A stretch of DNA of 64,000 nucleotides, taken from the NCBI RefSeq assembly GCF_050013435.1, contig NZ_JBEKFG010000004.1:12967-76966 (forward strand). The letters run 5' to 3'. How positions within the stretch are numbered: position 1 is the first letter of the stretch; every line of letters begins with the position of its first letter. Under the pieces are notes generated by a model. The model searched no databases. It was not told where the DNA came from and saw only the letters and a list, made by a program, of their open reading frames with translations. The DNA comes from Candidatus Binatus sp. (GTDB lineage: Bacteria > Desulfobacterota > Binatia > Binatales > Binataceae). The translations under genes were made by a program, and so were the position numbers. Below, piece after piece: positions 6,050 to 64,000 of this stretch.

Positions 6050-6112
6050 GATGAAATCCTCCTGAATATTCTGGCCACCGGCAAACCCGGGCTTCACAAT
6101 CGGCGAAATGCA

Positions 6113-10357: not shown

Positions 10358-10418
10358 GCGGTCCCTCCCTTGTGGTTGCGGAATCGGGGCTAACACCCCC
10401 GGTCGACCCGAACTCCAC

Positions 10419-27175: not shown

Positions 27176-27200
27176 ACAGAGAGAGGAAACCGGCAGCGAG

Positions 27201-39240: not shown

Positions 39241-39271
39241 AGTGGTGCCGAGGGATGGAGGCTGGAGAAAA

Positions 39272-43834: not shown

Positions 43835-43853
43835 GAATCGAAATGCGATGAAC

Positions 43854-45576: not shown

Positions 45577-45983
45577 TCCGCCGCGCTCCGCCAACTTTCC
45601 CGGACATTCACTTAATGCGCCTGCGATAACGCGCGTCCGTAACACGCGTCATCGATCCTTTCGATCCGTCCGCAGCGTGGGCCCAGCCTGATTGGATGCG
45701 CCATGCGCCCGACATCAAGACGGTCCCGGCGCGCCGCACAAGCGAGTGCGGCAGACTGCCCGAGCGCGCACGCGATCAAATCCAATTTTGTTCGCGCTGA
45801 TCGCACTGACCGCCATCAGCGTATTCGCCGCGAGGAGGATCGGTGTACCTGATGGAGCTGAAGGTGCTCTGCAGAACCAAATTGGTCTGGAAAATCTTGC
45901 AGAGGGAGGCTGTCTGGATTAAAAACAATTTGTAATCAGGAAGTTAAAATCAAAGAGCAAATTGTGATCGCGCGGATTGCGTT

Positions 45984-45999
45984 CGGCATAAAAATTGCT
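45984..45999 (+). promoter_or_regulatory. Candidate sigma-54 (-24/-12) promoter for the upstream cytochrome operon
   Basis: cGGCAT-AAAAA-TTGCT, with GG and GC 12 nt apart as in the TGGCAC-N5-TTGC consensus. Same element ahead of the second cytochrome operon. An NtrC-type activator is encoded 700 nt upstream. Confidence 0.45.
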
Positions 46000-46017
46000 T
46001 AAATAACAGAGCAATGA

Positions 46018-46328
46018 TTTTAGAAATATTAATGAGCGGGCATTTTCCCAAGGTTTACAAGGCGGTCGCCGAAGCGCCCAAAACCATGCTGACTCTTTCG
46101 GATACGACCACATCGCCTTTTGGATACAGTTGTGCCGCTCGGGACAATGTGCGACCGCCGGCATTGAGCCGCTGAACGAACGTTTTTAACGACGGCAGGC
46201 GCCTGAAACGGAGACGGCAAGATGGACAGGGTTACCGCCGATCAGTCCAAAGAGTTGATGGGTTTGCCGCTCAGGAGCCACCTAATGGTACTGGCTAGCC
46301 ACACGAACCGACGGCAGATGGTGAGCGA
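46018..46328 (+). promoter_or_regulatory. Long conserved 5' leader (about 210 nt shared with 54657..54863), candidate cis-regulatory RNA / upstream-ORF region
   Basis: About 75% identity over 210 nt with blocks of exact identity (TTTAGAAATATTAATGAG, GGGCATTTTCCCAAGG, CGGATACGA, CTTTTGGA-ACAGTTGT, CGACGGC, GGAGACGGCAA-ATGGA). In this copy the conserved block ends at an ATG opening a 36-codon upstream ORF (46221..46331), directly ahead of the cytochrome start. Confidence 0.5.
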
Positions 46329-47513: not shown

Positions 47514-47526
47514 GCGCAGTAGGAAG

Positions 47527-49086
47527 ATGATGAATATCAACCCCGCCACATCGAGGCGACCGACGCAGCTACCCCCGGAGGCTTTTGTTCGTCCGGCTGG
47601 GCTCTACGGGCAGTTGCCAATCCCGAGACTGGCTCGGATCGCTGCGATTCTATGTGCGTTGATCCTCGCGTGGAATGCTCAGGGTTGGTGCGCCGGTCCC
47701 CTTCCCCTGAACCTGGACCGTCCCGACTATAATTACTCCGGCCTTACGTGTATGAGCTGCCACTTTAATGCTGCTGAGGGAAATCCCCTCCACACGTCGC
47801 GCGCCGCCGGTGTTACGTATAGCACCACCACGGGCATGTGGGAGCGAACCGGCCATGGCTGGTGGGATTCGCGGCACGCCCAGTCGCAGAACGGCTGGTC
47901 GAATCCGACGTCTACACTTGGCTGGGAACAGCCCAGCGGGACCTACGGCGAGAACGACAATACTTTCTGCGCCAACTGCCACTCGCCGCTTCAGGCCAGC
48001 GTGTACGGGGTCGCATCAATTTCGGAATCGGGCACCACGGCGACAGTGACGCTCTCGGCGCCAGGAATTCCGCTTGCGGACATCGCAGTCGGTGACACCA
48101 TATTCATCGCTGGCAACACCGTTGCTGGCTACAACAACGTTGAAACCACGGCGCCAGCCCCGGCCATAGGTGGATGGACGGTGACCGGTATCACGGATGA
48201 CCCCACCGACACCTTAGCGGCGACAATTACGTTCACAGGGCTTAGCCCTGGTGGTCTTGCGACCGGCACAGGCGGCACTCTCGGAGATACTACCAGGACG
48301 AGCGTGGTGTTCAGCGGCCAGGTGCAAAACCCGGTCACAGTTGTGAGCACTGCTACAGGTACGATCGCTGCAAGTGCTGTAGGCTTTACAGGCGTGTGGT
48401 GCAGTTCGTGCCATCCGAGCAGCAGCCTCGGCGCAGCGATTATTGCGCGATATCCCGGTGTTACTCTGGTATCGGGTGGCGTAACGGCTACGCTCGTCCG
48501 CGGCGCGAATCCGGCCCTGGCAGCCTCGTGGGTTCCGATACTCCCGGGTTTCGACCCTAATGGTGTTTCGTATGAAAGCGACTTCTGCCTGACCTGCCAC
48601 GAACAGGATCCGCATAACGCGGCGTCGAATTCGGTCTTTCAGGTAATGTACGCTTCGGGGGTCTCTTGTATCGATTGTCACATGGCACCATTTGCCATTA
48701 ATACCGGCACCACGGTCGATTCGTTCGGAACTCCGGCGGGGCTTACGGAGCGGTTCCATGACTGGAAGGTCGCCGAAAACTTACCGTACTCGTGCGGCGC
48801 ACAGGGTTCCCTAACTCAATACACCTGCCACTCGGGGTTCAACGCCGCCTCCGCTTTGGCTTATATCCCTTTCATGACCGGCCAACACAGCGCATGGTGG
48901 AGCCTGCCGCCGTTTTCGTCCTCCTCGGAAGCGGTATCAGCACATGAACTGAACGCGACCTCGGACCAGCTCGCGCTGTGGCGCGAGATACAGGCGGTTT
49001 ACGGAGCGAGCGGTAAAGATACCAACTATAAAGAAGCCAGCTATGAGGAAGGGGCCCGGCTGAAGGCCGTGGTCGCAAGGCCATGA
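47527..49086 (+). CDS. Secreted multiheme c-type cytochrome, paralog of 46329..47513 with about 130-aa insertion (5 CxxCH + one CX10CH)
   Basis: CMSCH, CANCH, CSSCH, CLTCH, CIDCH, plus LPYSCGAQGSLTQYTCH. Shares an ERFHDW.V...LPYSCGA block and a C-terminal 'HTDWWTLPPF'/'HSAWWSLPPF' block with its neighbour. Confidence 0.75.
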   Translation: MMNINPATSRRPTQLPPEAFVRPAGLYGQLPIPRLARIAAILCALILAWNAQGWCAGPLPLNLDRPDYNYSGLTCMSCHFNAAEGNPLHTSRAAGVTYSTTTGMWERTGHGWWDSRHAQSQNGWSNPTSTLGWEQPSGTYGENDNTFCANCHSPLQASVYGVASISESGTTATVTLSAPGIPLADIAVGDTIFIAGNTVAGYNNVETTAPAPAIGGWTVTGITDDPTDTLAATITFTGLSPGGLATGTGGTLGDTTRTSVVFSGQVQNPVTVVSTATGTIAASAVGFTGVWCSSCHPSSSLGAAIIARYPGVTLVSGGVTATLVRGANPALAASWVPILPGFDPNGVSYESDFCLTCHEQDPHNAASNSVFQVMYASGVSCIDCHMAPFAINTGTTVDSFGTPAGLTERFHDWKVAENLPYSCGAQGSLTQYTCHSGFNAASALAYIPFMTGQHSAWWSLPPFSSSSEAVSAHELNATSDQLALWREIQAVYGASGKDTNYKEASYEEGARLKAVVARP

Positions 49087-51483: not shown

Positions 51484-54132
51484 ATGAACAAGTACGCAGG
51501 AAAAGTACGGATCGGCGTGATCGCGATCTTTTGTGGGCTCGCGTTTGCGATTGTCGGCCTTCATCGTTCTTCAGGCCGCGCCTATAGCGGGGTTCCCACC
51601 CCGACCCTACTGGTTTCGGACGTTTGCTCCTACGCCGTCACGGCTTACTCTGCCGCGAGCAACGGCGACGTCTCCCCGCTGATCCCCGTCCCTACCGGAC
51701 TTTCCGCACCGCAATTTGTGACCATTGACCCGAGTGGAAACATTTACGCCACCAACGCCTGCACCAACACCATCACCATTTACGCCGCGGGGAGCAAAGG
51801 CGACACCGGTCCCATCGCCATCATCGGCGGGCCCATGACCGGCCTGAGCGACCCAGCAGGCATCGCGCTGGATTCCAACCTCAACATCTATGTGGCGAAT
51901 GCAGGCGCCCCAGGCGTGTCTGTCTATCAGCCACTGGGAAGCAGCACCGGGCTGCTCAACGAGACCCCCATCGCCACCATCAGCGGGAGCAACACCGGCC
52001 TGCTCTACCCACAAGGCATCGCGGTGGATTCCAGTGGCAACATCTATGTGGCGGATGAAAGCGCCGCCAGCGTGTTTGTCTATCCGCCGCTGGCAAGCAG
52101 CACCGGGCTGCCCAACGAGAGCCCCATCGCCACCATCAGCGGGCTCGACACCGGCCTGAGCAGCCCCGAAGGCATCGCGCTGGATTCCAGCCTCAACATC
52201 TATGTGGCGGATGAAAGCGCCTCGAGTGTGTTTGTCTATCCGCCGCTGGCAAGCAGCAGCGGGCTGCCCAACGAGGCCCCCATCGCCACCATCAGCGGGA
52301 TCGATACCGGCCTGATCAGCCCATACGGCATCGCGTTGGATTCCACCACCGGCAAGATCTATGTGGCGGACGCGCTCGCCACCGGCGTGTTTGTCTATCC
52401 GGCGCTGGGAAAGAGCGTCGGACTGCCCGACGAGGTCCCCCTCGTCACCATCACCGGGAGCAAGACCGGCCTGAGCTACCCACAAGGCATCGCGCTGGAT
52501 TCCAGCGACGACATTTATGTGGCGGACACCAGCAGCGTGTTTGTCTATTCGGCGGGGAGTAAGGGCAATGCCGCTCCCAGTTCGGCCACCATCAGCACGA
52601 CCATGACCACCGGCCTGGGATGGCCACAAGGCATCGCGCTGGATTCCAGCGGCAAAATCTATATGGCGGATGACGGACCTGGAGCCAATGGCCCCGGCAG
52701 CGTGTTTGTCTATCCGGCCGGGAGCAAGGCCAATGCCGCTCCCACCGCCACCATCAGCGGGACCAACACCGGCCTGAGCTACCCACAAGGCGTCGCGCTG
52801 GATTCCAGCAAAAATATATATGTGGCGGACGAAGGCGCCGTCAGCGTGTTTGTCTATTCGGCGGGGAGCAATGGCAACGTCGCCCCCACCACCATCATTA
52901 GCGGGAGCAACACCGAGTTGGACACCCCGGAAGGCATCGTGGTGGATCCCAGCCTCAACATCTACGTGGCCGACGACGGTGACGGATCTTGCGATGGCAC
53001 CGAGAGTTTGTATGTCTATACGGCCGGGAGCATCGGCAATGCCGCCCCTGGCGCCACCATCAGTGGTGGCAACACCGGTCTGTGCTACCCGTACGGCATC
53101 GCGCTGGATTCCAACCTCAACATCTATGTGGCGGACGAGGGCGCCGCCAGCGTGTTTGTCTATCCTCCCTTGGCCAGCCTCCCCAGCCAGCCCAATTATC
53201 CCAACGTGACTCCCATCGCCACCATCAGCGGGAACAACACCGGCCTGAGCGGTCCGTACGGCATCGCGTTGGATTCCAGCGGCAACATCTATGTGTCGGA
53301 CTATTCCGCCAACGGCGTGCTTACCTATCCGGCGCTGGGAAGCAGCACCGGGCTGCTCAACGAGCCCCCCACCGCCACCATAAGCGGTCCGCTCACAGAA
53401 CTGGGGGAGCCTCAGTTCATCGCCGTCCAGCCGGCTGCCGCGCCGACACCGACGGCAACGGCGACTACCACGCCGACTGTGACGGCCACTCCAACCGCGG
53501 TGGCGACGACCTCGATATCGGTACCGAAGAAGCTGGACGTGGGCAAATCGACGCTGGGCAACACGGTGTCCAAGAACCTCGACGTGAAGAACACGGGGAA
53601 GGCGGACTTGTTCATCAACAGCGTATCCTCATCCGACCCTGAGTTCGTCCCCGGCGCCTCGACCTGTCCGGCGGGCGGGCTTGCGCCCAAGGGCAAGTGC
53701 ACGATCGCGATCGGATTCACGCCGACCGTGCTTGGCGCGGGTAGCGCGACGCTCACGCTCGACGATAACGCGGGCACGGGCACGCAGAACGTGGCGCTGT
53801 CGGGGACGGGGGAGCCCGATGTGACGGTATCGCCCGACAGCATCGCTTACGGCAAGGTGAAGTTGAGCGCAAAGAAAAGCAAGACGGTGAAGGTGAAGAA
53901 CGAGCAGCCGGTGGCGGTGACGCTGAGCCAGATCATCACCGGGACCGACGCGAGCTACTTCACGGTGACGGGCGGGACGTGCAGCGGCACGCTGGCGGCC
54001 AAGGCGAAATGCACCTACATCGTGACGTTCACGCCGGTGCTCGGCGTCGAGCGCACGGCGACGCTCAGTGTCACGGCGAGCCCCGACCTGCTAAGCCCGC
54101 ACAATGTGAGTCTAGCCGGCACCGGCTCATAG
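51484..54132 (+). CDS. Secreted NHL-repeat beta-propeller protein with Thr/Pro linker and C-terminal Ig-like (choice-of-anchor-D-type) domains
   Basis: SD GGGGAGAAG. TM/signal anchor. At least 12 repeats of 'P.GIALDSS.NIYVADE.A.SVFVYP' and an AAAPTPTATATTTPTVTATPTAVATT linker. Three LSGTG-bounded domains as in 1064..4810. Confidence 0.75.
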   Translation: MNKYAGKVRIGVIAIFCGLAFAIVGLHRSSGRAYSGVPTPTLLVSDVCSYAVTAYSAASNGDVSPLIPVPTGLSAPQFVTIDPSGNIYATNACTNTITIYAAGSKGDTGPIAIIGGPMTGLSDPAGIALDSNLNIYVANAGAPGVSVYQPLGSSTGLLNETPIATISGSNTGLLYPQGIAVDSSGNIYVADESAASVFVYPPLASSTGLPNESPIATISGLDTGLSSPEGIALDSSLNIYVADESASSVFVYPPLASSSGLPNEAPIATISGIDTGLISPYGIALDSTTGKIYVADALATGVFVYPALGKSVGLPDEVPLVTITGSKTGLSYPQGIALDSSDDIYVADTSSVFVYSAGSKGNAAPSSATISTTMTTGLGWPQGIALDSSGKIYMADDGPGANGPGSVFVYPAGSKANAAPTATISGTNTGLSYPQGVALDSSKNIYVADEGAVSVFVYSAGSNGNVAPTTIISGSNTELDTPEGIVVDPSLNIYVADDGDGSCDGTESLYVYTAGSIGNAAPGATISGGNTGLCYPYGIALDSNLNIYVADEGAASVFVYPPLASLPSQPNYPNVTPIATISGNNTGLSGPYGIALDSSGNIYVSDYSANGVLTYPALGSSTGLLNEPPTATISGPLTELGEPQFIAVQPAAAPTPTATATTTPTVTATPTAVATTSISVPKKLDVGKSTLGNTVSKNLDVKNTGKADLFINSVSSSDPEFVPGASTCPAGGLAPKGKCTIAIGFTPTVLGAGSATLTLDDNAGTGTQNVALSGTGEPDVTVSPDSIAYGKVKLSAKKSKTVKVKNEQPVAVTLSQIITGTDASYFTVTGGTCSGTLAAKAKCTYIVTFTPVLGVERTATLSVTASPDLLSPHNVSLAGTGS

Positions 54133-54621
54133 GCGGTGCGATCGGGCGCGAACGATCCCGCCGCAATAGAACGAAACGCCCGTCCGGCCATCGTGGCATG
54201 GCATTGGCGAGAACGATATTGGCGATGATCAGCTCGCGCCATGGTCGGCGGCGTCGGCGAATCATGGTATCGTCGCCTAATCAATGTCCCTCGGCAACGC
54301 CGCCCGGACTTCATTCAGAGGAATGGCGCCGACATGACGAGGGATATCGACGGGTGTCCCTCCTCAAAACCTCATCGGGGGCGATGATGCTGTCGTGGAC
54401 ATTGTCCGCGCCAAAAGTTCCATCCGAACACGAGACGGCCGGAAAGCGCTATCGACGATTGCTCACGGCGCCGGAAGTTCGAATCTTGCCCTTTACACTC
54501 GCCTTTGAAGGTGCCGCGCGGAACAGAGCCGCGGCTGGAAAAATCTTGCAACGGGGGGGGCGGTTTGGACTACAAAGCGACTTAAAATGCGAGCGTAAAA
54601 TGCGGCCGGGAGAATTGGGGC

Positions 54622-54637
54622 CGGTATAAAAATTGCT
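54622..54637 (+). promoter_or_regulatory. Candidate sigma-54 (-24/-12) promoter for the mtrAB-like operon
   Basis: cGGTAT-AAAAA-TTGCT. Identical architecture and flanking ATAAAAATTGCTTA as at 45984. Confidence 0.4.
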
Positions 54638-54656
54638 TACTTGGCAGGCTGACGTC

Positions 54657-54860
54657 TTTAGAAATATTAATGAGAGGGCATTTTCCCAAGGGTCACAAGG
54701 CCGCCACGGAAGGGTCCTAAAGCTGAATGGTTCTTCCGGATACGATCGCGTTGTCTTTTGGACACAGTTGTCCTGTCTTGGGGGCGATGTGTAACCGACG
54801 GCGGTAAGCCGCTAGAGGGCGCGTTTGCCGACGGCGGACGCCCGAAATGGAGACGGCAAT
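54657..54860 (+). promoter_or_regulatory. Conserved 5' leader, second copy (see 46018..46328)
   Basis: Aligns to 46018..46223. Here the conserved GGAGACGGCAATATGGA ends exactly at the decaheme cytochrome start codon. Confidence 0.5.
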
Positions 54861-55883
54861 ATGGAGGAGGAACGCAGCTCGCGAAAGTTTTGGGCAGGTC
54901 TTTTGGTGGCACTGGTCGCGGTTGGAATCGCCTTCGTGTTTTCATCGCCCCCCGCAATCGGCGCGGAAGGCACCCTGCTTTCCCAAGCCGCGGGATCGGG
55001 GACGACGCTGCCGCCCGGCTACGTCCATAATGACACCTGCGTCAGTTGCCATGATGTGCAGGTCAAGGCCTTCCGCAACACGATGATGGGCCATCTTATG
55101 CTGGGCCGGCCGCGCGACGACCGAGAAAGCCTCGCGTGCCAGGCCTGTCATGGTCCCGGCCGCGAGCACTTACGCCATCCGAGCAAGCCGTCGCCGGGAT
55201 TTGTGAGCTTTCGCGAGACCTCCTTCAAGGACATCAAGGTTGAGAACGAGCGGTGCCTCGAATGCCATCAAAACGGCGAGCGCGGCTTCTGGCGGGCCAG
55301 CACCCACGCCGAGCGCGGCATTCGATGCGTCGATTGTCACGCCGTGATGTGTCCGGTGACGGCGAGCGCGCTGCCGCAGGCGCAACTCAAGAAGTCGCCG
55401 CTTGGCACGGAGTTCGTCAATCCATTCATCGTGACGCGCCCCGAAACCCAGGTTTGCCTGCGCTGCCATCTCGACAAAAAGATGGAGATCAATCTGCCGT
55501 CGCACATGCCGCTGCGCGAGGGATTGATGACGTGCACCGACTGCCACAACCCACATGGCGGGCCGTATCAGAAGCAATTGCGGGCGGCGATGGTCAATGA
55601 GGTCTGCTACCGCTGCCATGCCGAGAAGCGCGGGCCGTTCCTGTGGATGCATGCGCCGGTGGCGATGAACTGCATCAATTGCCATGTCCCGCACGGCAGC
55701 GTGAATCAGCACATGCTGGTGATCAACATGCCGGTGCTGTGCCAGCGCTGCCACATCGGAACTAGTCATACGAGTCAACCTCATAGGAGAGGTCAAATTT
55801 TCGTGATCAACCAGCAATGCGCCAATTGCCATTCACAGATACACGGCTCGAACTCGCCGGGCGGGAGATATTTCACGCGTTGA
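54861..55883 (+). CDS. Periplasmic decaheme c-type cytochrome, MtrA/PioA/MtoA/DmsE family
   Basis: Start MEEERSSRKFWAGLLVALVAV (signal anchor). Ten CxxCH motifs in about 340 aa, several as CxxCHxPHG. Directly followed by an MtrB/PioB-type barrel gene. Confidence 0.75.
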   Translation: MEEERSSRKFWAGLLVALVAVGIAFVFSSPPAIGAEGTLLSQAAGSGTTLPPGYVHNDTCVSCHDVQVKAFRNTMMGHLMLGRPRDDRESLACQACHGPGREHLRHPSKPSPGFVSFRETSFKDIKVENERCLECHQNGERGFWRASTHAERGIRCVDCHAVMCPVTASALPQAQLKKSPLGTEFVNPFIVTRPETQVCLRCHLDKKMEINLPSHMPLREGLMTCTDCHNPHGGPYQKQLRAAMVNEVCYRCHAEKRGPFLWMHAPVAMNCINCHVPHGSVNQHMLVINMPVLCQRCHIGTSHTSQPHRRGQIFVINQQCANCHSQIHGSNSPGGRYFTR

Positions 55884-55954
55884 AGCGGGAGGCACAGGAA
55901 AGCACGGCATCGCTGGGCCGCACCGCGTTTTGCAACCGGCCCGGGAGGAAAGTC

Positions 55955-58210
55955 ATGAACCTCAAGCGGTTGTTAGCCGGATGTGGAACGATGGCGCTCG
56001 TGTTGTCGATGGTCTCGCCGGCACTGGCACAGGTCGATGTCGGGAAATACACGGTGCAGGGATCGGTCGAGGCGGGCGCCATCCCCCAGCCCGTCCCCTA
56101 TGACGACTCCGCGGCGAAGTATCAGGAGTACCGCGATCTGGCGCAGCAGTTCATCGTGCCGAAACTCCAGTTGATCCTGGGCGACAAGGCGGAGAACTAC
56201 TACGTGCAGTTCGACGCGGTTAACGTCGCACAAAAGAACCAGATGTATTCGCTGCGCTTCGGCGAGTACGGCCTGCTCGATGTTCAGGCAAAATTCTTCG
56301 AGATTCCACACGCCTTCAGCGACGGCGTCGCGAGCACGCCATACGACGAAAACGGCGGCAGCTTCACGCTATCCTCGAAGCCCACTGGTACCGGCACCGC
56401 CCTCCAATCCTGGCTGGCAGCGAACGACAAACCGTTCGACATGAGCCTGCTCGAAGGTGTCGCGGACATCAACGTGCGCTATACGCCCACGCCGTCGCTG
56501 AGCTTCAGCGCGAACCTGGATTATCAGAACCCCACCGGCCAACAGCCATTCGGTGGCAGCTTCATGTTTGGCGCCAATCCGGGCAGTTACAAAGTGAACG
56601 AACTCTGGGCGCCAATTCAGTACTACATCTATAACTTCGGCACCGGCATGGAATACGCGAAAAACGGATGGCTGGTGGGGTTCCAGTACCAGGGATCCTT
56701 CTTCGTCGACGACTACAGCACCCTGACCTGGGACAACCCGCTCAATACCAGCGGAGTAGGCGGCAATTGCGTGGATTCCACCGTCTTCAGTTCCACGTCG
56801 CTTACCGGCCCATGCGAGGGACGGGCAGCGATGTATCCGAACAACCAGGCTCACAACTTCATCGTGAATGGAGCGGGTCAGCTTCCATTCAACACGCACG
56901 TGATGGGCAGCCTCGAGTACGGATTCTGGCTCCAGAACTCTCCCTTCATCCCGCTTACGAGCAACAGCACGCTGAAGCAGTCATTAAGTTCGGTCGGGGC
57001 GCCCAATAGCCTCGGCGGCGACGTGCAACCTTTCTTCGCCAACTTCACGATCGACAGCAATCCGATCGAGCCGCTGGACATCAAGGCGGTCTATACCTAT
57101 TTCGATTACGACAACCTGACGCCGGGGGTCACCTTCAAAGGCGTTAAGTCGCTCAATGACATCTCGGACCCGCAGATGCCTTTCAGCGCTTATCCCTTTT
57201 CATTTTCGGAGCAGGACGTCAGCCTCGAGCCAACCTACCACGTGACTGATACTATAGCCGCGCACTTTACTATGAAGTGGCAGACCAACCACAACGAGGG
57301 GCTGGAGGTGCTGCAGCAGGATCAGCTCAGCTATGGGCCTGCGCTCGATTGGAACCCATATCCGTGGCTGACTTTCCGGGCGGATTACCAGCACGCGCAC
57401 CGCGACTCGCCGGGATACAACAACAACCGCGCCGACCTAGTCGAGATCCTTGGCGGGATCCCGGGAGGGATCGCGGAGGTTCAGGACCTGCGGCGGTTCG
57501 ACGAGGCCACGGTCGATGTGAACCAGACTTCGCTCTATGCCTCCGTGCAGCCGATCGAAAACGTCAGCCTGTTCAGCTCCTTCAGCTACGACGACTATAA
57601 CTACCCCTCGACCGACTTCGGCCTGCAGCATACGTCGAGCTACACGCCGTCGGTGGGGGGCAGTTACGATCCGCTTCCGACCCTGCATTTTTTCGGCGAC
57701 TACGCATGGCAAGCGTACGATTGGAACCTAAGGTCGCTTTACGGGGGTACCGGCGTAAAGCCGGGTGTGCCGGGAAAATCGTGGGTTTGGACGGCGGATG
57801 GCCGCAACCAGGGCAACAATTTCGATCTCGGGATGGACGTCGCGATACCGCAGAATCATATCCTGAAGCGGCCGTCGCACCTGAAAATCCAGTACACCTA
57901 TACGGTTGGCAGCAACCTCACCCACCAATCGGGCGCTACGGCGGCCGGTTCGGCGTCGGAGGCGATCGACTATCCAAATGCCGGCACCCAGATGGAAGAG
58001 TTGATGGTTCAGTACGAGTACGATTTGCGCGACAACCTCGCGATCAACATCGGGTACTACTTCAACAATTTCGGCGAACACAATTACATGGTGGACCAGA
58101 TGGCGAACTACATGCCCGGCGCCAGCAAAAACTCGACATTTCTCGGCAACTCCGACATGTCCCCCTACAACGCCAATGTCGGATTCATAACTCTTAAATA
58201 CAAATTTTAA
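55955..58210 (+). CDS. MtrB/PioB-family outer-membrane beta-barrel (porin component of porin-cytochrome conduit)
   Basis: SD GGAGGA. Signal peptide MNLKRLLAGCGTMALVLSMVSPALA. About 750 aa, rich in alternating aromatic beta-strand pattern. C-terminal ..GFITLKYKF ends in the aromatic residue typical of OMPs. Position after the decaheme gene. Confidence 0.7.
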   Translation: MNLKRLLAGCGTMALVLSMVSPALAQVDVGKYTVQGSVEAGAIPQPVPYDDSAAKYQEYRDLAQQFIVPKLQLILGDKAENYYVQFDAVNVAQKNQMYSLRFGEYGLLDVQAKFFEIPHAFSDGVASTPYDENGGSFTLSSKPTGTGTALQSWLAANDKPFDMSLLEGVADINVRYTPTPSLSFSANLDYQNPTGQQPFGGSFMFGANPGSYKVNELWAPIQYYIYNFGTGMEYAKNGWLVGFQYQGSFFVDDYSTLTWDNPLNTSGVGGNCVDSTVFSSTSLTGPCEGRAAMYPNNQAHNFIVNGAGQLPFNTHVMGSLEYGFWLQNSPFIPLTSNSTLKQSLSSVGAPNSLGGDVQPFFANFTIDSNPIEPLDIKAVYTYFDYDNLTPGVTFKGVKSLNDISDPQMPFSAYPFSFSEQDVSLEPTYHVTDTIAAHFTMKWQTNHNEGLEVLQQDQLSYGPALDWNPYPWLTFRADYQHAHRDSPGYNNNRADLVEILGGIPGGIAEVQDLRRFDEATVDVNQTSLYASVQPIENVSLFSSFSYDDYNYPSTDFGLQHTSSYTPSVGGSYDPLPTLHFFGDYAWQAYDWNLRSLYGGTGVKPGVPGKSWVWTADGRNQGNNFDLGMDVAIPQNHILKRPSHLKIQYTYTVGSNLTHQSGATAAGSASEAIDYPNAGTQMEELMVQYEYDLRDNLAINIGYYFNNFGEHNYMVDQMANYMPGASKNSTFLGNSDMSPYNANVGFITLKYKF

Positions 58211-58331
58211 GCCGAGGCTATTGGAGTACGAGCAGCAAGAGTCCGGGACAAACAACGAATGACCTATCTTCCGCCGCGGCCCGGCCCGCAAATCAAACGG
58301 CGGAAAAGGAATGGAAGGAAGGAGAGAAGAC

Positions 58332-58745
58332 ATGACCGAGAGTTTGACAACCAAGGGTCGATCGAGAGTGTGGATTTGGACCGCGACGGTTATACCGGCG
58401 GTTGCAGCGCTGGCGTTGATCTCAACCGCCGCCCGCGCAGCCGATCTCACGTCCGCGGCCAGCAGCTACACGGATACGTGCGCCAAGTGCCACGGCCCGG
58501 CCGGCAAGGGCGACGGTCCCAAAGCGGCCGAGCTGAAAGACAAGGACGGCAAACCGGTCGCCATCGGAGATTTGTCCGATTGCGCCAAGATGAGCAAGGT
58601 TACCGATGACGACTTGTTCAAGGAGCTGAAAGAGGGCGGCGCGTCGGTGGGCAAGAGCAAGTTCATGACGCCCTATGGCGATGCGATGGAGGATGACGAG
58701 ATCAAGGCGATGGTTGCGTACGTCAGAACCTTGTGCAAGAAGTAG
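58332..58745 (+). CDS. Periplasmic monoheme class-I cytochrome c (MtoD-like position)
   Basis: SD GGAAGGAAGGAG. Signal peptide. Single CAKCHG heme site. Met-containing C-terminal half (KFMTPYGDAMEDDEIKAMVAYV). Confidence 0.75.
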   Translation: MTESLTTKGRSRVWIWTATVIPAVAALALISTAARAADLTSAASSYTDTCAKCHGPAGKGDGPKAAELKDKDGKPVAIGDLSDCAKMSKVTDDDLFKELKEGGASVGKSKFMTPYGDAMEDDEIKAMVAYVRTLCKK

Positions 58746-58774
58746 CGGCGCGCACCACGTCGGCAATCGGCCAT

Positions 58775-58880
58775 CCCAATACGGGCACTCAGTTCCATGG
58801 GTTGATGTTTTAGTATGTGTACGATTTTGCGCGATAACGTCGCGATCAACGTCGGCTACTACTTCAGCAAGTTTAGATAA
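58775..58880 (+). pseudogene. Remnant of a second mtrB-like gene 3' end
   Basis: Aligns to mtrB 57966..58210 with internal deletions (..ACGATTTTGCGCGATAACGTCGCGATCAACGTCGGCTACTACTTCAGCAAGTTTAGATAA against ..ACGATTTGCGCGACAACCTCGCGATCAACATCGGGTACTACTTC..AAATACAAATTTTAA). Confidence 0.55.
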
Positions 58881-58910
58881 CCCGCTTTCACCGAAGGAAG
58901 GAGATAAGCC

Positions 58911-59324
58911 ATGTCGAAGAGTTTGAGCAGTAAAATTCGATCGAGTCTGTGGATTTGCACCGCGTCGGCCATACCGGCGGTTGCAGCACTGGCGTTGTTC
59001 TCAACCACCGCCCGCGCAGCCGATCTCACGTCCGCGGCCAGCAGTTATACGGATACGTGCGCCAAGTGCCACGGTGCGGCCGGCAAGGGCGACGGCCCTA
59101 AAGCGGCCGAACTGAAAGACGCGGCCGGCAAGCTGGTCGCCATCGGAGATTTGTCCGATTGCGCCACGATGGCCAAGGTTACTGACGACGACATGTTCAA
59201 GGAGCTGAAAGAGGGCGGCGTGTCGGTGGGCAAGAGCAAGTTCATGACGCCCTATGGCGATGCGATGGAGGACGACGAGATCAAGGCGATGGTTGCGTAC
59301 GTCAGAACCTTGTGCAAGAAGTAG
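58911..59324 (+). CDS. Periplasmic monoheme class-I cytochrome c, tandem duplicate of 58332..58745
   Basis: About 90% identical protein with the same CAKCHG site and its own strong SD (GAAGGAAGGAG). Confidence 0.75.
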   Translation: MSKSLSSKIRSSLWICTASAIPAVAALALFSTTARAADLTSAASSYTDTCAKCHGAAGKGDGPKAAELKDAAGKLVAIGDLSDCATMAKVTDDDMFKELKEGGVSVGKSKFMTPYGDAMEDDEIKAMVAYVRTLCKK

Positions 59325-59612
59325 CGACGCGCGTCAAGCTCGAGTATGAGTCCAGGCGCGCGGGATTGAGGGCGAGCAGACTTAGGCAGCCGCCGGCTTG
59401 TAGTTGGCCGGCGGCCTTGCGCAGCAGTTGTACTGGCATTCCCTCTGACCACCCAAAGCAGCCGAGTGAATGCCCTCGCACGGGTAACCGACTAGATCTC
59501 ACCAGAGAGCGACTCACGGCAAGCGGGTCCGATCCCAGGGATCGGACCGCTTGCCGCTCGGAAACCGGGCGTCGCTTCCCTATATTCAAAAAAGAAGCAA
59601 CGCAGGTGGAAT

Positions 59613-61145
59613 ATGCAAACGAGCGGAGATGAGCCGGGCGCGCCGGAAGTGGAGCGCCCGGAGGGGCAAAATGGCGGCGCAGCCGAACGCCAATTGCCAA
59701 GTTTGGCTCGCAATCGGCTGAGTATCGCTGGTCTGATCATTGCCGTCATCATCCTGGCGGACATGCTTTCCCTGGCCGGCATGACGATGCTGGGGGTGCA
59801 GCTGAACCCCTACGTCGGCATTTTTGCCTACCTGATCGGTCCGGCCGTCATGATAGTAGGCCTGTTGCTCATTCCGGCCGGCATGCTGATCGAACGTCGA
59901 CGGCGCCGGAGATTTTTGCCCGGTGAGCTGCCGCCCTTTCCCAAGCTCGATCTCAACCAGCCTTCGGTTCGGCGCGGCTTTCTCGGCGCGGTCGGCTTTG
60001 CGTTCTTTTTCGTGGCTCTCAGCATGGTGGCGAGCTACCAGGGCTACCAGTTCACGGACTCGGTGATGTTCTGCGGGCAGACCTGTCACGTCCCGATGAA
60101 GCCGGAATTCGACGCCTACCAGGATTCGCCGCACGCGCGGGTCGCATGCGCGGGCTGCCACGTGGGACCCGGCGCCACCTGGTTTGTTCGCTCCAAGCTG
60201 TCGGGCGCCTATCAGGTCTATGCGGTAATGTTCAACAAGTACCCCAGACCTATCGAAACTCCGATCAAGGAGTTGCGCCCGATTCGCGCTGCCTGCGAGC
60301 AATGCCATTGGCCACAGAAGTTCTACGGCGCGCAACTCAAGGTCTTCCCGCATTATGGATACGACGAGAAGAACACTCCCATGCGTATCCAGATGCTGAT
60401 CAAGACCGGAGGAGGAACTGCCGAATTCGGCCACGCCACCGGAATTCACTGGCACATGAACATCGCCAACGAAGTATGGTTCGCGGCTACTGACAAGCAG
60501 TCCCAGGTGATTCCGTGGGTAAAAGTGAGGACGCCTGACGGAAGGACCACGGAATACCTTGCCAAGGGCAGTACGCTGACCCCAAAGCAGATCGAAGCGA
60601 TGCCCATCCAGCAGATGGACTGCGTGAGCTGCCATGCCCGCCCGTCGCATAAGTTCCTTCCGCCCGATCAGGCGGTCGATGCGTCGTTCGAGGCGGGTCA
60701 GCTAGACCCTTCGCTGCCCTTCCTGAAGAGGCAGGCGGTCAAGGCCCTGATTAAGCACTACAGCACGTCGGAGGAGGCGGCCGAGGGAATCGCAACCTCC
60801 CTCGATACCTTTTACCGCAATCGCTATTCCGAGATTTATACCGTGAAGTGGCCGCAAATCCGCGCTGCCATCGCCGCCGTGCAGCAGATCTACAAAAAGA
60901 ACATGTTTCCTTTCATGCACGTTGACTGGCGCACTCATCCCGACAACATCGGCCACCTCTATTACCCGGGATGTTTCCGCTGTCACGATGGGCAGCACGT
61001 CAGCTCTGATGGCCGGGTGATACCGCAGGATTGCGATACCTGTCACTCGGTCCTTGCAACTCCTACAAGTGTCGCCCAGTTCAAGCATCCAGTTGATGTG
61101 GGCGACACGACTTGCAGCGCCTGTCATACAGGAGGCGTGCTGTAA
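59613..61145 (+). CDS. Inner-membrane heptaheme c-type cytochrome, ImcH-like (NapC/NirT-related quinol dehydrogenase)
   Basis: Two or three N-terminal TM helices. Seven CxxCH (CGQTCH, CAGCH, CEQCH, CVSCH, CFRCH, CDTCH, CSACH). Length (510 aa) and layout match Geobacter ImcH-type proteins. Confidence 0.5.
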   Translation: MQTSGDEPGAPEVERPEGQNGGAAERQLPSLARNRLSIAGLIIAVIILADMLSLAGMTMLGVQLNPYVGIFAYLIGPAVMIVGLLLIPAGMLIERRRRRRFLPGELPPFPKLDLNQPSVRRGFLGAVGFAFFFVALSMVASYQGYQFTDSVMFCGQTCHVPMKPEFDAYQDSPHARVACAGCHVGPGATWFVRSKLSGAYQVYAVMFNKYPRPIETPIKELRPIRAACEQCHWPQKFYGAQLKVFPHYGYDEKNTPMRIQMLIKTGGGTAEFGHATGIHWHMNIANEVWFAATDKQSQVIPWVKVRTPDGRTTEYLAKGSTLTPKQIEAMPIQQMDCVSCHARPSHKFLPPDQAVDASFEAGQLDPSLPFLKRQAVKALIKHYSTSEEAAEGIATSLDTFYRNRYSEIYTVKWPQIRAAIAAVQQIYKKNMFPFMHVDWRTHPDNIGHLYYPGCFRCHDGQHVSSDGRVIPQDCDTCHSVLATPTSVAQFKHPVDVGDTTCSACHTGGVL

Positions 61146-61172
61146 GCGAATCGGCGCGGACGAGAGAGACAA

Positions 61173-62474
61173 ATGGCGCACGGATCAAGACGGATGGTTA
61201 GCGGCTTTGGGCGCATCGCGTGCGCTGTTGCGGCAATGCTGCTGTGTGCGGTCGCGATGGGCCATGCCGCAGCGACGACCAAGGCCGCTGCGACCGAGGG
61301 CGCTGCGACGACCAAGGCCGCTGCGGCCAAGGTGCTCACCGATAAGGATTGCCTGGGATGCCATAATCTGAAGGCCAGCGCCAAGTTGCAGGCGCGGGTG
61401 GTTAGCGTCTACGTCAATGCGGAGATTTACCAGCCCTCGGTCCATTCGAAGGTAGGTTGTGTCGCCTGCCATTCTGACATCCATGCCTTTCCACATCCCG
61501 ATTCGGTCAAGCCGGTTTCATGCGCCGGCTGCCACGCGAGCGAGACTTCGGGGTATGCGGGCAGCGTTCATGCAATCGCCGAGCGGGAGAAGAAGAGCCG
61601 CTTTCCGGCCTGTCTCAACTGTCACGGCAACCCCCACGGCATCCTGGCCAAGACTGACCCGAAGTCGCGAGTCTATCCGCTCAACCTGCCGCGCACCTGT
61701 GGCACCTGCCACGGAAATCCCGAGCTTGCCAAGAAATATGGCTTTCCGGATGTGTACGCGTTGTACATGGATTCGATTCACGGCTTCGCCCTGACCTCCG
61801 ACGGGCTGTTGGTGGCGGCAACCTGCGCCAGTTGCCATGGGGCGCACGATATCCTGAGCAGAAAGGACCCGAAGAGCCGGACCTTCCCTAAAAATGTGCC
61901 CGCCACCTGTGGCGGGTGCCATGCCGGCGTCCAAGTCGACTACCTTGCCGGAGCGCACGGCCAGGCGATGACCGCCGGGCGCGCGAATGCTCCGGTATGC
62001 ACCAATTGCCATACCGCGCATCAGATTGCCCAGGTGGACGTCGTGAACTGGCAACTCAAAACCGTCGCCACCTGCGGCAACTGTCACAAGACGAGGCTTA
62101 AGAGCTACCGCGATACTTTCCACGGCCAGGTGACCGAACTCGGTTTCGTCGCCACGGCACGATGCTGGAGTTGCCATGGCTCTCACCTGATTCTGAAGGC
62201 TTCCGATCCGAAGTCCAAGGTCGCGCCGGCCAACCTCCCAACCACGTGCGGCAAGTGCCACGCCGGCGCAACCGCGAGTTTTGTCAGCTACGAGCCACAT
62301 CCCAATGTGCACGACCGGCGGCAGAACCCGGCTTTATATTACGCGGCCCTCTTCATGAACCTGCTGCTGGTGGGGGTTTTCCTCTTCTTCGGCCTGCACA
62401 CAGCGCTATGGCTTGCGCGGTCGCTGGGGAACGGGTCGCGGGGGAAGGGCAATGGAGTGAGCGGTGAACAGTAA
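61173..62474 (+). CDS. 11-heme c-type cytochrome with C-terminal TM anchor (Cbc/CbcL-type periplasmic subunit)
   Basis: Signal peptide. Eleven CxxCH, many as CxxCHxxH/CxxCHGxPHG. C-terminal hydrophobic helix LYYAALFMNLLLVGVFLFFGL. Overlaps the downstream b-type cytochrome gene by 11 nt. Confidence 0.7.
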   Translation: MAHGSRRMVSGFGRIACAVAAMLLCAVAMGHAAATTKAAATEGAATTKAAAAKVLTDKDCLGCHNLKASAKLQARVVSVYVNAEIYQPSVHSKVGCVACHSDIHAFPHPDSVKPVSCAGCHASETSGYAGSVHAIAEREKKSRFPACLNCHGNPHGILAKTDPKSRVYPLNLPRTCGTCHGNPELAKKYGFPDVYALYMDSIHGFALTSDGLLVAATCASCHGAHDILSRKDPKSRTFPKNVPATCGGCHAGVQVDYLAGAHGQAMTAGRANAPVCTNCHTAHQIAQVDVVNWQLKTVATCGNCHKTRLKSYRDTFHGQVTELGFVATARCWSCHGSHLILKASDPKSKVAPANLPTTCGKCHAGATASFVSYEPHPNVHDRRQNPALYYAALFMNLLLVGVFLFFGLHTALWLARSLGNGSRGKGNGVSGEQ

Positions 62475-63294
62475 CGATTCAGAACAATATTATTTTCGCT
62501 TCTCGCTGGGGCAGCGCTACCTGCACGGCTTGGTGATCACAACCTTTTTGGGTCTTGCCGCCACCGGAATGACCCTGCGGTTCAGCGAACGGGGTTGGGC
62601 AAAGTCACTGGCGGAAATCGCCGGCGGATTCACTGCGATCCTATCTCTGCATAAGTTCTGCGCGGTGCTTATATCAGCCGGCTTTCTCTACCATATTGGA
62701 GAGCTCTTCTATCGGGCGATGATAAAGAAGGAGCGGGGCCTTTTTTTGGGGCCATACTCGATGACTCCGCAGCCCAAGGATGCCGTGGACCTCTTTGAGA
62801 TGCTGCGCTGGTTCCTTTGGATGGGTCCGCAGCCCAAATTCGACCATTTTGCCTACTGGGAGAAGTTCGACTATTGGGCGGTGTTCTGGGGAATGGCGAT
62901 TATCGGCGCCACCGGCTACATGATGTGGTTCGGACCTTTCTTTGCCCGCTTCGTGCCCGGCTACCTACTCAATATCGCGCTCCTGATTCACGGTGAGGAA
63001 GCTCTGCTGGCCGTCTGGTTCATCTTCATTATCCACTTTTTTAATTCCCACCTGCGCCCTGAGAAGTTTCCGCTCGACCCTGTGATATTTACCGGCCGCG
63101 TCAGCGGTGGAGACTACCAGCACGAGCGCCCGCTGGATTATTCGCGGCTTGGCGAGTCCGGCGCCCTGGAAGCGTTGCGCAGTGACCCGCCTCCCCTTTG
63201 GCTCAAGAATTTCTCCCGCTTGATCGCGATTGTTGCGGTCGGCATCGGCTTTGCGTTGCTCGCGCTTACCTGGATCGCCTTTTGGACCGAGTAG
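62464..63294 (+). CDS. Membrane di-heme b-type cytochrome (HydC/FdnI/cytochrome b561-like) partner of the 11-heme cytochrome
   Basis: Five TM helices. RYLHG motif in helix 1 and conserved His in later helices (LIHGEE, IHFFNSH), consistent with the PF01292-type fold. Confidence 0.55.
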
Positions 63295-63445
63295 CCGCAT
63301 GCCCGCCAATTATAATTTTTCTGTCACGGCCCGCAGGCTTGTTTTTGTTGCCTGCTCGCCGTATGTTCACGCGCATTAAACTACAGACTCCTATTGAACT
63401 GGAGCACCAGAACATGAACGCCGCTATCGCACAAGGAGAATCGCA

Positions 63446-64000
63446 ATGGTATCCGGTGTAATTATACTCATCGCCGCAATCTTCATTTTGAGCGGCGTCA
63501 AAATCCTTAACGAATACCAGCGCGCCGTAGTCTTCCGCCTTGGGCGGCTCATGCGGTACCGCGGCCCAGGCATAATTTACGTGATCCCCTTCATTGAGCG
63601 GATGGTCCGGATCGATCTGCGTACGGTCGTGCTCGATGTCCCACCGCAGGACGTAATCACCAAGGACAACGTGACCGTCAAGGTGAGCGCGGTGCTCTAC
63701 TTCCGGGTGAGCGATCCATCGCGCGCGGTTACCGAGGTGGCAAATTACCTGTTCGCGACCATGCAGCTCGCGCAGACCACGCTGCGCTCCGTCGGCGGAC
63801 AGACCGAACTCGACGAACTCTTAAGCCAGCGCGACAAAGTCAACGCGCGCATCCAGTCGATCGTCGATGCCCATACTGAGCCGTGGGGAATCAAGGTCAT
63901 TCTCGTCGAGTTGAAGAACATTGACCTGCCGCAGGACATGCAGCGCGCGATCGCCGCGCAGGCCGAGGCCGAGCGCGAACGGCGCGCCAAGGTTATCGCG
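63446..64000 (+). CDS. SPFH/band-7 (stomatin/HflC-like) protein, 3' end beyond window
   Basis: SD AAGGAG. N-terminal [23 protein letters not shown] core ([35 protein letters not shown]..). Reading frame open to 64000. Confidence 0.75.

Follow-up and report, generated by a model that had tools for sequence, protein, structure and literature searches.

We find that the tandem duplication of a monohaem cytochrome c gene in the uncultured soil and peat bacterium Candidatus Binatus is real, and that it is the product of an ordinary kind of genome history. The window, by which we mean the whole stretch of 64,000 nucleotides analysed, carries two such genes for class I cytochromes, copy 1 at 58332–58745 and copy 2 at 58911–59324 (these and all features below lie on the forward strand), with a dead piece of the neighbouring outer-membrane porin gene between them. 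Very probably the full account consists of a duplication, a 222-nt deletion, a porin relic that has since evolved neutrally, and two cytochrome genes that have been retained and subjected to gene conversion.

The cytochrome pair is part of what its gene content marks as an Mto-like extracellular electron transfer cluster. An MtoA/PioA/MtrA-like gene for a periplasmic decahaem cytochrome c (54861–55883; Pfam Paired_CXXCH_1, 1.6e-27, plus an NrfB-like match; 10 CXXCH motifs in 340 aa, which is also the annotated length in relatives) is followed by the gene for a 751-aa outer-membrane beta-barrel porin of the MtrB/PioB/MtoB type (55955–58210). The porin matches PF11854 (MtrB_PioB) with E = 2.8e-68 over profile positions 5–635 of 635 and has a signal-like N-terminus, MNLKRLLAGCGTMALVLSMVSPALA; a decahaem cytochrome next to an MtrB/PioB-family barrel is the combination by which an MtoAB/PioAB/MtrAB module is recognized. 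The reading frame of the decahaem gene has an alternative opening at TTG 54825, and a sigma-54-like promoter is located ahead of it at 54623–54639. Spacer 1, of 121 nt (58211–58331), leads from the porin stop to the ATG of copy 1, spacer 2, of 165 nt (58746–58910), separates the two cytochrome genes, and spacer 3 (59325–59612), which is structured and invariant in length, precedes the gene for a membrane-anchored, NapC/NirT-related multihaem cytochrome of 510 aa (59613–61145), located in the ImoA/CymA position. Quinol dehydrogenases of the NapC/NirT family (CymA/ImoA) are tetrahaem proteins of about 20 kDa with a single N-terminal membrane helix, whereas the protein found here matches PF03264 (E = 2e-09) over residues 126–210 only and has six CXXCH motifs and one CX3CH motif; with 510 aa and 6–7 haem motifs it is therefore a relative rather than a typical member of that family. 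Further downstream are the genes for an 11-haem cytochrome c of 433 aa (61173–62474) and a cytochrome b561-type membrane subunit of 276 aa (62464–63294; PF01292, E = 3.1e-06, slightly under the gathering score). An Rfam search of 54000–64000 returned nothing relevant, and a scan for promoters and terminators gave a number of sites not above that in shuffled sequences.

The two cytochrome regions align without gaps (58314–58750 against 58893–59329), with 395 of 437 nucleotides identical (90.4%), head-to-tail and at a repeat spacing of 579 nt, and the products, 137 aa each, are 85% identical. An earlier sequence-only reading had proposed a tandem pair of about 90% identity in which each gene has its own Shine-Dalgarno site, and it was right in both respects, as GGAAGGAG stands 7–9 nt ahead of both ATGs. 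A further ATG ahead of copy 1, at 58311, is not a conserved start. Copy 1 matches Pfam Cytochrom_C (1.3e-09) and Cytochrome_CBB3 (8.2e-09), copy 2 matches Cytochrom_C (3.9e-09), and against the class I models (PF00034 / PF13442) the two proteins score 39.7 and 38.1 bits with a cut-off of 21.3. Both have a single CXXCH, at residue 50. AlphaFold2 predicts an all-alpha class I fold, with a pLDDT of 81.5 overall and above 90 across the mature domain, and the top Foldseek matches of this model are all class I cytochromes. The best of them are of the c552/c6/c553 type (Kuenenia stuttgartiensis Kustc0562/0563 and Thioalkalivibrio c552), at E = 1.8e-4 to 5.5e-4, target-normalised TM scores of 0.64–0.83 and 22–29% identity; the Binatus pair differs from them in its conserved Cys84...Cys135 and GKGDGPKAAELK segment past the haem motif, and in being set in a porin-cytochrome cluster. 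Among 48 homologues C50, C53, H54, M87 and M112 are invariant and C84 and C135 nearly so. Since the CXXCH histidine, His54, is the only histidine in either protein, His/Met ligation of the haem is predicted.

The history of the duplication can be read from spacer 2. Its head, the 12 nt past the stop of copy 1 (58746–58757), is common to 59325–59336 past copy 2, and when cggcgcgcacca is set against cgacgcgcgtca the identity ends after about 12–14 nt. The next 137 nt (58758–58894) are a dead relic of the porin 3′-region that aligns to its paralogous source at 57954–58092, at offsets 801/802. Local alignment of spacer 2 to the porin gene gives a score of 109 (200 shuffles, 20.5 ± 2.3, maximum 28.5), in two ungapped blocks at offsets 801 and 802 with 76–78% identity, and BLAST reports 79.5% identity over 112 nt (E = 5e-21). 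Similarity thus extends beyond the cytochrome reading frames, to which it would have been restricted had the earlier reading been mistaken. That reading had described a fragment of 105 nt that aligned, with internal deletions, to the last 250 nt of the mtrB-like gene. The derivation from the porin holds, but the fragment is 137 nt long, its source lies between 257 and 119 nt ahead of the last base of the porin stop codon and is not the terminus of the gene, and in place of large internal deletions there are a 1-nt insertion and one terminal deletion of 222 nt.

Within the relic, read in the porin frame, TAG replaces CAG at 58809–58811, an additional T near 58824 shifts the frame by +1 and a second stop lies near 58876; the translation is TSAIGHPNTGTQFHGLMF*YVYDF / LRDNVAINVGYYFSKFR* against SEAIDYPNAGTQMEELMVQYEYDLRDNLAINIGYYFNNFGEHNYM in the porin. 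Internal indels of 3–4 nt suggested by a gapped alignment were rejected, as less-decayed relics show substitutions at these places (ttcc vs atgg), and the comparison of relics across lineages leaves a single real insertion, of 1 nt. The left edge possibly includes a 3-nt indel. At the right edge the relic is fused, at a decayed ATGG junction, to a copied Shine-Dalgarno tail, accGAAGGAAGGAGataagcc (58890–58910), which duplicates the last 21 nt of spacer 1 (58311–58331, including the Shine-Dalgarno site) ahead of copy 2. Positions 58093–58314 of the copy 1 unit are absent from the copy 2 unit, and these 222 nt consist of the 118 nt that end the porin copy plus 104 nt from the start of the 121-nt spacer. 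In the least decayed relic, that of L094, the junction is intact (...aatttcATGGAAGGAAGGAG): ...ggcgaacacaatttcATGGAAGGAAGGAG is porin sequence up to catgg, joined to the spacer tail ggaATGGAAGGAAGGAG. Public gene calls stretch the reading frame of copy 2 into the relic, and the resulting 'proteins' of 165 aa and 161 aa, starting LRDNIAINVGYY..., are an annotation artefact.

The lineages compared show that an ancestor of several Binatus lineages carried one monohaem cytochrome c gene directly past its mtoA-like and mtrB-like genes. From the anatomy of the junctions, we suggest that a head-to-tail duplication of about 0.8 kb then took place, with breakpoints within the porin gene on the left (at about 57954–57960) and some 12 nt beyond the cytochrome stop on the right (~58757). 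At first, some 257 nt of the porin 3′-end, then the 121-nt spacer and then the cytochrome gene would have made up the new copy. A single deletion of 222 nt would next have occurred between two ATGG(AA) repeats, located at 58089–58092 in the porin and at 58311–58314 in the spacer; it would have spared the ribosome-binding site and produced the present 165-nt spacer. The mechanism is not unusual. The head-to-tail copies, the breakpoint in a neighbouring gene and the dead fragment left behind are those of a textbook tandem segmental duplication, and the short ATGG direct repeat at the junction and the paralogues under gene conversion are like those of microhomology-mediated duplication and deletion with later concerted evolution of the copies. 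What stands out against the textbook case is the age of the relic, which is found in several species, and the fact that sister lineages carry another spacer haplotype, unrelated to the first.

At least five lineages bear the relic (the window, L095–97, L094, L099/100 and L101/102), all with the same junctions and with a spacer of 165 nt (167 in L099), and they differ from one another at 7–18% of four-fold sites. The five relics have derived states in common, namely the extra T (gattttgcg), atgttt and gataac, and the relic retains porin states of other species where the porin of the window has changed (ttcc vs atgg; caacgtcggc vs caacatcggg). The relic of L099 is like the other relics and unlike the porin gene of L099 itself, which is L011-like. 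These comparisons indicate a single old origin, and the relic is ancient and common to diverged Binatus lineages, a point that the earlier reading had not seen.

Other lineages (L011, L093, L098, L091 and L105) have a second type of spacer, of 97–114 nt and without the porin relic. The first roughly 47 nt of the 97-nt type resemble the sequence past copy 2 (nhmmer E = 0.016–0.1, collinear), whereas the relic spacer has 12 nt in common with that sequence only; the two types therefore have different right junctions, and no single deletion could convert one into the other. Against the porin 3′-end plus spacer 1, the 97-nt spacer gave a pairwise local alignment at shuffle level and no nhmmer match. 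Residues typical of copy 2 (Leu/Val75 and Ser/Cys/Thr78) are present with both spacer types, which speaks for a single duplication of the gene with one or more rearrangements later on; copy 2 of the window has Leu75 but a copy-1-like Ile at residue 78. A history in two steps could be built on this, in which a duplication with short flanks gave the 97-nt spacer (as in Binatus soli and others), a later duplication of the porin end, spacer 1 and copy 1 gave three copies, and unequal crossing-over brought the number back to two and left the relic before a largely copy-2 gene. We consider such a history possible, if rather doubtful. The unequal lengths of post-stop sequence (12 nt vs about 47 nt) and the residues found with both spacers, of which copy 2 of the window has Leu75 only, are in its favour, as are the grouping of this copy with copy 2 of L093 and L098, both of the 97-nt type, in a nucleotide tree, and the occurrence of that type in deep-branching lineages, including some without mtoAB. 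However, it requires three events, a three-copy intermediate is found in none of about 12 lineages, the joint copy-2 clade has a bootstrap of only about 20%, and the diagnostic residues could have spread by gene conversion. To explain why the spacer type is discordant with the trees of flanking genes, one has to assume either an old polymorphism or recombination from lineage to lineage. Phylogenies of the NapC-like, 11-haem and porin genes have the form of a star-like radiation and conflict with each other. A cytochrome gene tree rooted on the outgroup gives weak support for a clean split between copy 1 and copy 2; for this purpose the genes are too short and have undergone too much gene conversion.

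We favor the duplication of about 0.8 kb also over a larger unit. The sequence-only reading had the barrel gene in full, and possibly the decahaem gene as well, duplicated together with the cytochrome gene and the second barrel later trimmed. Its central claim, a tandem duplication reaching into the 3′-region of the porin gene, is borne out by the alignments of the gene pair and of the spacer. In bacteria, large tandem duplications that later suffer deletions are common, and a porin-derived fragment is indeed present between the cytochrome copies. On the other hand, the smaller unit suffices, and a longer remnant, of a second porin or of a decahaem gene, is seen in none of the sampled genomes. 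The 5′ edge of the relic furthermore meets the 12-nt head at the identical base in five out of five relic-bearing lineages, about 12 nt past the copy 1 stop, so that a larger unit would need an extra deletion ending exactly there, and the sole demonstrable deletion is on the 3′ side. Trimming did occur, as one 222-nt deletion between ATGG repeats, but at the opposite end of the relic from the one that the earlier reading implies, and we regard the larger unit as quite unlikely.

Between lineages the relic spacers are 80–90% identical (94.5% for the window vs L095), and identity at four-fold sites of the adjacent NapC-like gene is 82–90% (93.7% for the window vs L095). The divergence of the relic equals that of four-fold sites; it is without function and drifts at the neutral rate. 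The relic lies directly ahead of the ribosome-binding site of copy 2, and its spacer measures exactly 165 nt in four of the lineages and 167 nt in the other despite 10–20% substitution, which could suggest that it was co-opted as a leader or regulatory element for copy 2. We find this highly improbable, since the substitution rate is that of four-fold degenerate sites, the predicted RNA fold of the spacer is no better than that of shuffles (z = +0.73) and an unrelated 97-nt spacer works in other lineages. The adjacent 288-nt spacer is likewise without indels, and indels are thus simply rare in the region. Spacer 2 had no match in Rfam. The contigs come from short-read metagenome assemblies, in which repeats are prone to mis-joining, but the chance that the arrangement is an assembly artefact or a fortuitous similarity is negligible, given ten independent metagenome contigs (JGI and ENA) with 99.9–100% identity over 57900–59450, the same architecture in diverged lineages, in some cases on contigs of 0.6 and 3.6 Mb, and an alignment score about 38 standard deviations over shuffles.

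Each Binatus locus spanning the site has exactly two copies, in about 12 sampled lineages, while the Binataceae outgroup (L103/L104) has mtoA, mtrB and one cytochrome c gene, followed by Rieske and cytochrome b genes. Copy-number variation among related genomes, for which the earlier reading had proposed to look, was thus not seen within Binatus, and its suggestion that the region may still be recombinogenic holds for gene conversion in relatives but not for copy number, which is fixed at two. When metagenomes were scanned with the hairpin conserved in spacer 3, only 8 contigs came up, with two copies wherever a contig spans the site. Scanning one genome per species with the cytochrome alignment gave 80 loci and one close Binatus genome (L011), the patterns being too general, and look-ups of exact proteins were far more productive. 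The two copies of L094 are 98.8% identical (bootstrap 99), and those of L091 and of L011 each cluster within their own genome, which shows that the copies are occasionally homogenised by episodic gene conversion. In the window 2 of the 39 differences between the copies fall in the last 130 nt; conservation of synonymous sites in the 3′ third of the genes is not unusual over all copies (14% vs 15–17%), so this near-identity looks like a local conversion tract. Every copy in all lineages is an intact open reading frame. The dN/dS ratio is 0.2–0.5 between paralogues and, against orthologues, 0.12–0.29 for copy 1 and 0.3–0.54 for copy 2; these values point to purifying selection keeping both genes intact. 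In copy 2 of the window/L095 clade, 8 non-synonymous changes stand against 1 synonymous change.

Judging from gene context, the two secreted cytochromes would most likely function as periplasmic electron shuttles between the outer-membrane conduit of MtoA/MtrB type and complexes of the inner membrane, where the downstream genes encode their putative partners, complexes of NapC/NirT-like and of cytochrome bc type. In Sideroxydans lithotrophicus ES-1 the Mto cluster comprises mtoA, mtoB, mtoD, imoA/cymA and pmcA (PMC4412085), and the Binatus cluster is like it, and like PioAB/MtrAB, in combining, in this order, a decahaem cytochrome, an MtrB/PioB barrel, one or more small secreted monohaem cytochromes and a NapC/NirT-family membrane cytochrome (PMC4412085). 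The periplasm of ES-1 contains two monohaem cytochromes that differ in partners and in potential (PMC13390432); these are unrelated, whereas the Binatus proteins are tandem paralogues with 85% identity. The clusters also differ in the NapC-like protein (tetrahaem in ES-1; 510 aa with 6–7 haem motifs in Binatus), in the 11-haem cytochrome and cytochrome b561-like subunit that follow the NapC-like gene in Binatus, and in their hosts, Binatota here and Gallionellaceae for ES-1.

Both cytochrome genes lie directly past the MtrB_PioB gene, which is the genomic position of MtoD, but the proteins are not members of the MtoD family. MtoD (Slit_2498, PDB 4XXL) has bis-histidine axial ligation (PMC4412085), whereas His54 is the only histidine of either Binatus protein. 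A phmmer comparison with 4XXL was marginal (E = 0.018) and covered residues 21–71 only, the haem-binding N-terminus, and 4XXL is not among the top 50 Foldseek matches. PmcA (Slit_2494), a His/Met cytochrome of low potential, is the partner of MtoA and ImoA (PMC13390432). In Binatus, two slightly different copies may have been retained for different partners or for dosage. We speculate further that the relic and 97-nt spacers are an old two-haplotype polymorphism passed between Binatus species by homologous recombination, and that the cytochromes are specialised, like MtoD and PmcA of Sideroxydans, for two inner-membrane routes (NapC-like/quinone vs cytochrome bc complex/oxidase), although we hold this combination to be fairly unlikely.

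As a rare genomic change that is clean and can be dated, the relic serves to mark a group of Candidatus Binatus lineages; it also exposes recombination among them, as spacer type conflicts with the trees of flanking genes. Binatus, a widespread uncultured genus of soil and peat, is furthermore found to have an Mto-like porin-cytochrome cluster that is complete and in which two monohaem cytochromes of the periplasm have been kept. Our search of one library of literature on Binatia/Binatota together with MtoA, MtrB or cytochrome gave incidental mentions only, and no description of an Mto-like cluster with two monohaem cytochromes in Binatus was found there. The pair parallels the recently revised two-shuttle model of Sideroxydans (PMC13390432), and, as a near-identical natural pair of proteins, it offers material for testing what determines partner specificity. 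We point out, finally, that spacer 3, whose first 12 nt (59325–59336) form the right edge of the duplicated unit, is exactly 288 nt long in five lineages and has hairpins at 59386–59416 and 59516–59551 (RNA fold z = -3.7).

We find the cytochrome pair in a + strand porin-cytochrome gene cluster, at its 3′ end, where the genes of a decahaem, mtoA-like cytochrome (54861-55883; 340 aa, ten CXXCH) and of an MtrB/PioB-family barrel, the porin (55955-58210; 751 aa; Pfam PF11854, E = 2.8e-68), precede two genes for monohaem class I cytochromes c of 137 aa each (copy 1, 58332-58745; copy 2, 58911-59324). A NapC/NirT-related multihaem protein (59613-61145; 510 aa), an 11-haem cytochrome (61173-62474) and a cytochrome b561-like protein (62464-63294) are encoded further along the same strand. 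The sequence-only reading had described the pair as approximately 90% identical, and this is confirmed: with their ribosome-binding sites the copies (58314-58750 and 58893-59329) align without gaps at 395 of 437 identical positions (90.4%), and the proteins are 85% identical. Its interpretation as a tandem duplication is also correct, as pairwise alignment matches the 165-nt inter-copy spacer to the porin gene with a local score of 109, against 20.5 ± 2.3 for shuffled spacers (BLAST E = 5e-21). By repeat search this match consists of two ungapped blocks with offsets of 801 and 802. The porin-derived segment (58758-58894), hereafter the relic, is 137 nt long rather than the 105 nt first reported, and it is not the end of mtrB: its source is 57954-58092, between 257 and 119 nt from the 3′ end of that gene. 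In the porin frame it reads TSAIGHPNTGTQFHGLMF*YVYDF and then, after a +1 shift, LRDNVAINVGYYFSKFR*, where the live gene has SEAIDYPNAGTQMEELMVQYEYDLRDNLAINIGYYFNNFGEHNYM (asterisks, stop codons); the relic is thus a dead copy. The arrangement is not an assembly artefact, since 57900-59450 is 99.9-100% identical in ten independent metagenome contigs.

A single duplication of approximately 57954-58757 would yield exactly the left junction that is observed. The relic starts about 12 nt after the copy 1 stop in all five lineages that carry it, and these 12 nt (cggcgcgcacca) agree with those directly following the copy 2 stop (cgacgcgcgtca), beyond which the identity is lost. The earlier proposal that the duplicated unit held the whole barrel gene and was trimmed later is unsupported, as it requires a later deletion with an end coinciding with the duplication junction; a larger unit is improbable and also unnecessary, since the single duplication suffices and no larger remnant of a second unit was found in any genome examined. 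What survives of the trimming is one deletion, but it would have arisen at a microhomology, on the relic's 3′ flank. Missing from the relic unit are the last 118 nt of the porin gene and the first 104 of the 121 nt between porin and copy 1 (58211-58331), a net loss of 222 nt (the 801/802 offset minus the 579 offset). In L094, the relative with the least-decayed relic, porin sequence ...ggcgaacacaatttcATGG is fused directly to GAAGGAAGGAG of the ribosome-binding region, and the porin-to-cytochrome spacer reads ggaATGGAAGGAAGGAG, from which we suggest that the 222 nt were lost between two ATGG(AA) repeats.

The relic is old, with a single origin. The spacer containing it is common to the window, its sister L095-97 (97.5% identical), L094, L099/100 and L101/102, with a length of 165 nt (167 in L099), the same left and right junctions, the frame shifted by the same additional T (gattttgcg), and atgttt and gataac as derived states. 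It has not been refreshed from the live gene: at sites where the porin gene of the window has changed, it retains the states that other species have in theirs, and in L099 it is like the relics of the other lineages and unlike the porin gene of that genome, which is L011-like. Identity of the relic spacer between lineages is 80-90% (94.5% for window and L095), and that of four-fold degenerate sites in the neighbouring NapC-like gene is 82-90% (93.7%). The spacer showed RNA structure no better than shuffles (z = +0.73) and no Rfam match, and its constant length is not special, as the 288-nt spacer after copy 2 is likewise without indels in the same five lineages. We conclude that the relic is a neutral remnant. 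Two database proteins, P0010 (L099 5001-5486) and P0020 (L102 685-1182), are public calls of the copy 2 ORF that reach upstream into the relic, the second half of which is in frame with the cytochrome gene in their lineages; these 165- and 161-aa 'proteins', starting LRDNIAINVGYY...GEHNFMEGRRG, are an annotation artefact.

The window was assigned to Candidatus Binatus (Binatota) by the names of near-identical database proteins, and diverged loci were gathered by exact-protein look-up and pattern scans. A check of related genomes for copy-number variation at this site had been proposed; every Binatus locus spanning it has exactly two tandem copies, and the number has been stable since the duplication. 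A more remote member of the Binataceae (L103/L104) has a single cytochrome c gene after mtoA and mtrB, and Rieske and cytochrome b genes come immediately next; the duplication therefore took place either inside the genus or at its base. Ancient and with copy number fixed at two, the event is neutral outside the two functional genes, an ordinary, well-explained genome history in a poorly studied phylum. Two Binatus lineages (L091/L092 4378-5000; L105 416-1050) are entirely without mtoA and the porin gene and retain, immediately 3′ of tatA, the last ~100 nt before copy 1, the two cytochrome c genes and the NapC-like module; the cluster's periplasmic and inner-membrane portion can therefore occur where the outer-membrane conduit is missing. 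In L098 (1025-4372), the gene call joins mtoA and the porin gene into one putative fused ORF of 1115 aa, which may be a real fusion, a frameshift or a sequencing error. A third cytochrome c of class I, with 52-54% identity to the pair (L001 15734-16093; L106-L113), lies ~5.3 kb downstream of it, past the window end, and has Rieske and cytochrome b/c genes as neighbours in every Binatus locus; the outgroup's single cytochrome c is flanked immediately by the porin gene on one side and by the Rieske/cytochrome b genes on the other. An older mtoAB-cytochrome c-bc cluster may have received the NapC-like/11-haem/cytochrome b561/Band_7 block by insertion.

A second type of spacer, of 97-114 nt and without the relic (97-type), is found in L011 (Binatus soli), L093, L098, L091 and L105. 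Its first ~47 nt resemble the sequence after copy 2 (nhmmer E = 0.016-0.1, always collinear), compared with 12 nt of post-stop sequence in the relic spacer, and its remainder has no detectable source; neither type is derivable from the other by one deletion. Copy-2-typical residues (Leu/Val75; Ser/Cys/Thr78) occur with both types, and the window's copy 2 clusters with copy 2 of 97-type genomes in a small nucleotide tree. These comparisons suggest one gene duplication and then further rearrangement, which a larger, outgroup-rooted tree backs weakly. Spacer type conflicts with the flanking-gene trees: the porin tree pairs L011 (97-type) with L099 (relic; 100% bootstrap) and separates a group of L098 (97-type), the window and L095 from L093/L011/L099 (100%), and the NapC-like tree pairs L091 (97-type) with L101 (relic; 95%). 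As both spacers are complex one-off rearrangements, the conflict means either that lineages have recombined or that an old polymorphism has been sorted among them.

Every cytochrome copy is intact. Between paralogues dN/dS is 0.2-0.5, and between orthologues 0.12-0.29 for the first copy and 0.3-0.54 for the second; the C50-x-x-C53-H54 haem motif, M87 and M112 are invariant in 48 homologues, and C84 and C135 nearly so. Between window (58911-59324) and L095 (5001-5414), copy 2 shows 8 non-synonymous changes and 1 synonymous, and copy 1 shows 1 and 2, small numbers that would fit either relaxed or positive selection acting on copy 2. Gene conversion between copies is evident: those of L094 are 98.8% identical (bootstrap 99), and those of L091 and L011 cluster within their own genomes (85% and 72%). 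The near-identical 3′ ends in the window point to a conversion tract that predates the separation of window and L095, as the last 130 nt hold only 2 of the 39 differences while synonymous divergence, taken over all copies, is uniform from one end of the gene to the other (14-17%). The suspicion that the site is recombinogenic thus holds for gene conversion and exchange between lineages only, with copy number fixed at two.

By sequence inspection both proteins carry an N-terminal signal-like segment ending ARA/AD, and an AlphaFold2 model (pLDDT 81.5; >90 across the mature domain) matches class I, c552/c6-like cytochromes (Foldseek E down to 1.8e-4). MtoD of Sideroxydans lithotrophicus has the same cluster position (PMC4412085) but is bis-His ligated, whereas the Binatus pair has one His. 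Similarity to 4XXL (E = 0.018) is confined to the haem-binding end, and 4XXL is absent from the top 50 structural matches; membership of the MtoD family is ruled out on these three grounds. In the ES-1 cluster, MtoD and the His/Met-ligated PmcA have recently been found to serve as two monohaem cytochromes that differ in their partners (PMC13390432), a functional analogy for retaining two copies, which may be specialised here too.

The 288 nt between copy 2 and the NapC-like gene (59325-59612), a length exact in five lineages, are strongly structured (RNA fold z = -3.7), with two conserved hairpins (59386-59416; 59516-59551, GCGGGTCCGATCC-nnn-GGATCGGACCGC), a T-run being absent 3′ of both; no Rfam match was found for this spacer, which may be a candidate processing, attenuation or protein-binding site. 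The ~330 nt 5′ of the mtoA-like gene (54545-54865) are a 73-82% copy of 45900-46260, upstream of another multihaem cytochrome gene pair (46329-47513, 47500-49086). Both regions contain a GG-N10-GC, sigma-54-like element, GGYATAAAAATTGCTTA (45985-46001; 54623-54639), and a sigma-54 activator/response regulator gene lies at 43734-45272. As kinase, activator and tatA genes are directly 5′ of mtoA or of the first cytochrome gene in L091 and L093, the window lineage seems to carry an ~8.6-kb insertion with a duplicated promoter. Elsewhere in the window there are three copies of a 70-nt element ~2.1 kb apart (6098-6167, 8190-8259, 10418-10487), a 120-nt repeat pair of 96% identity 12 kb apart (27062-27181, 39123-39242), and long internal repeat arrays in two large repeat-protein genes (1258-3467; 51758-53434), one of them encoding an NHL-repeat protein (51484-54132).
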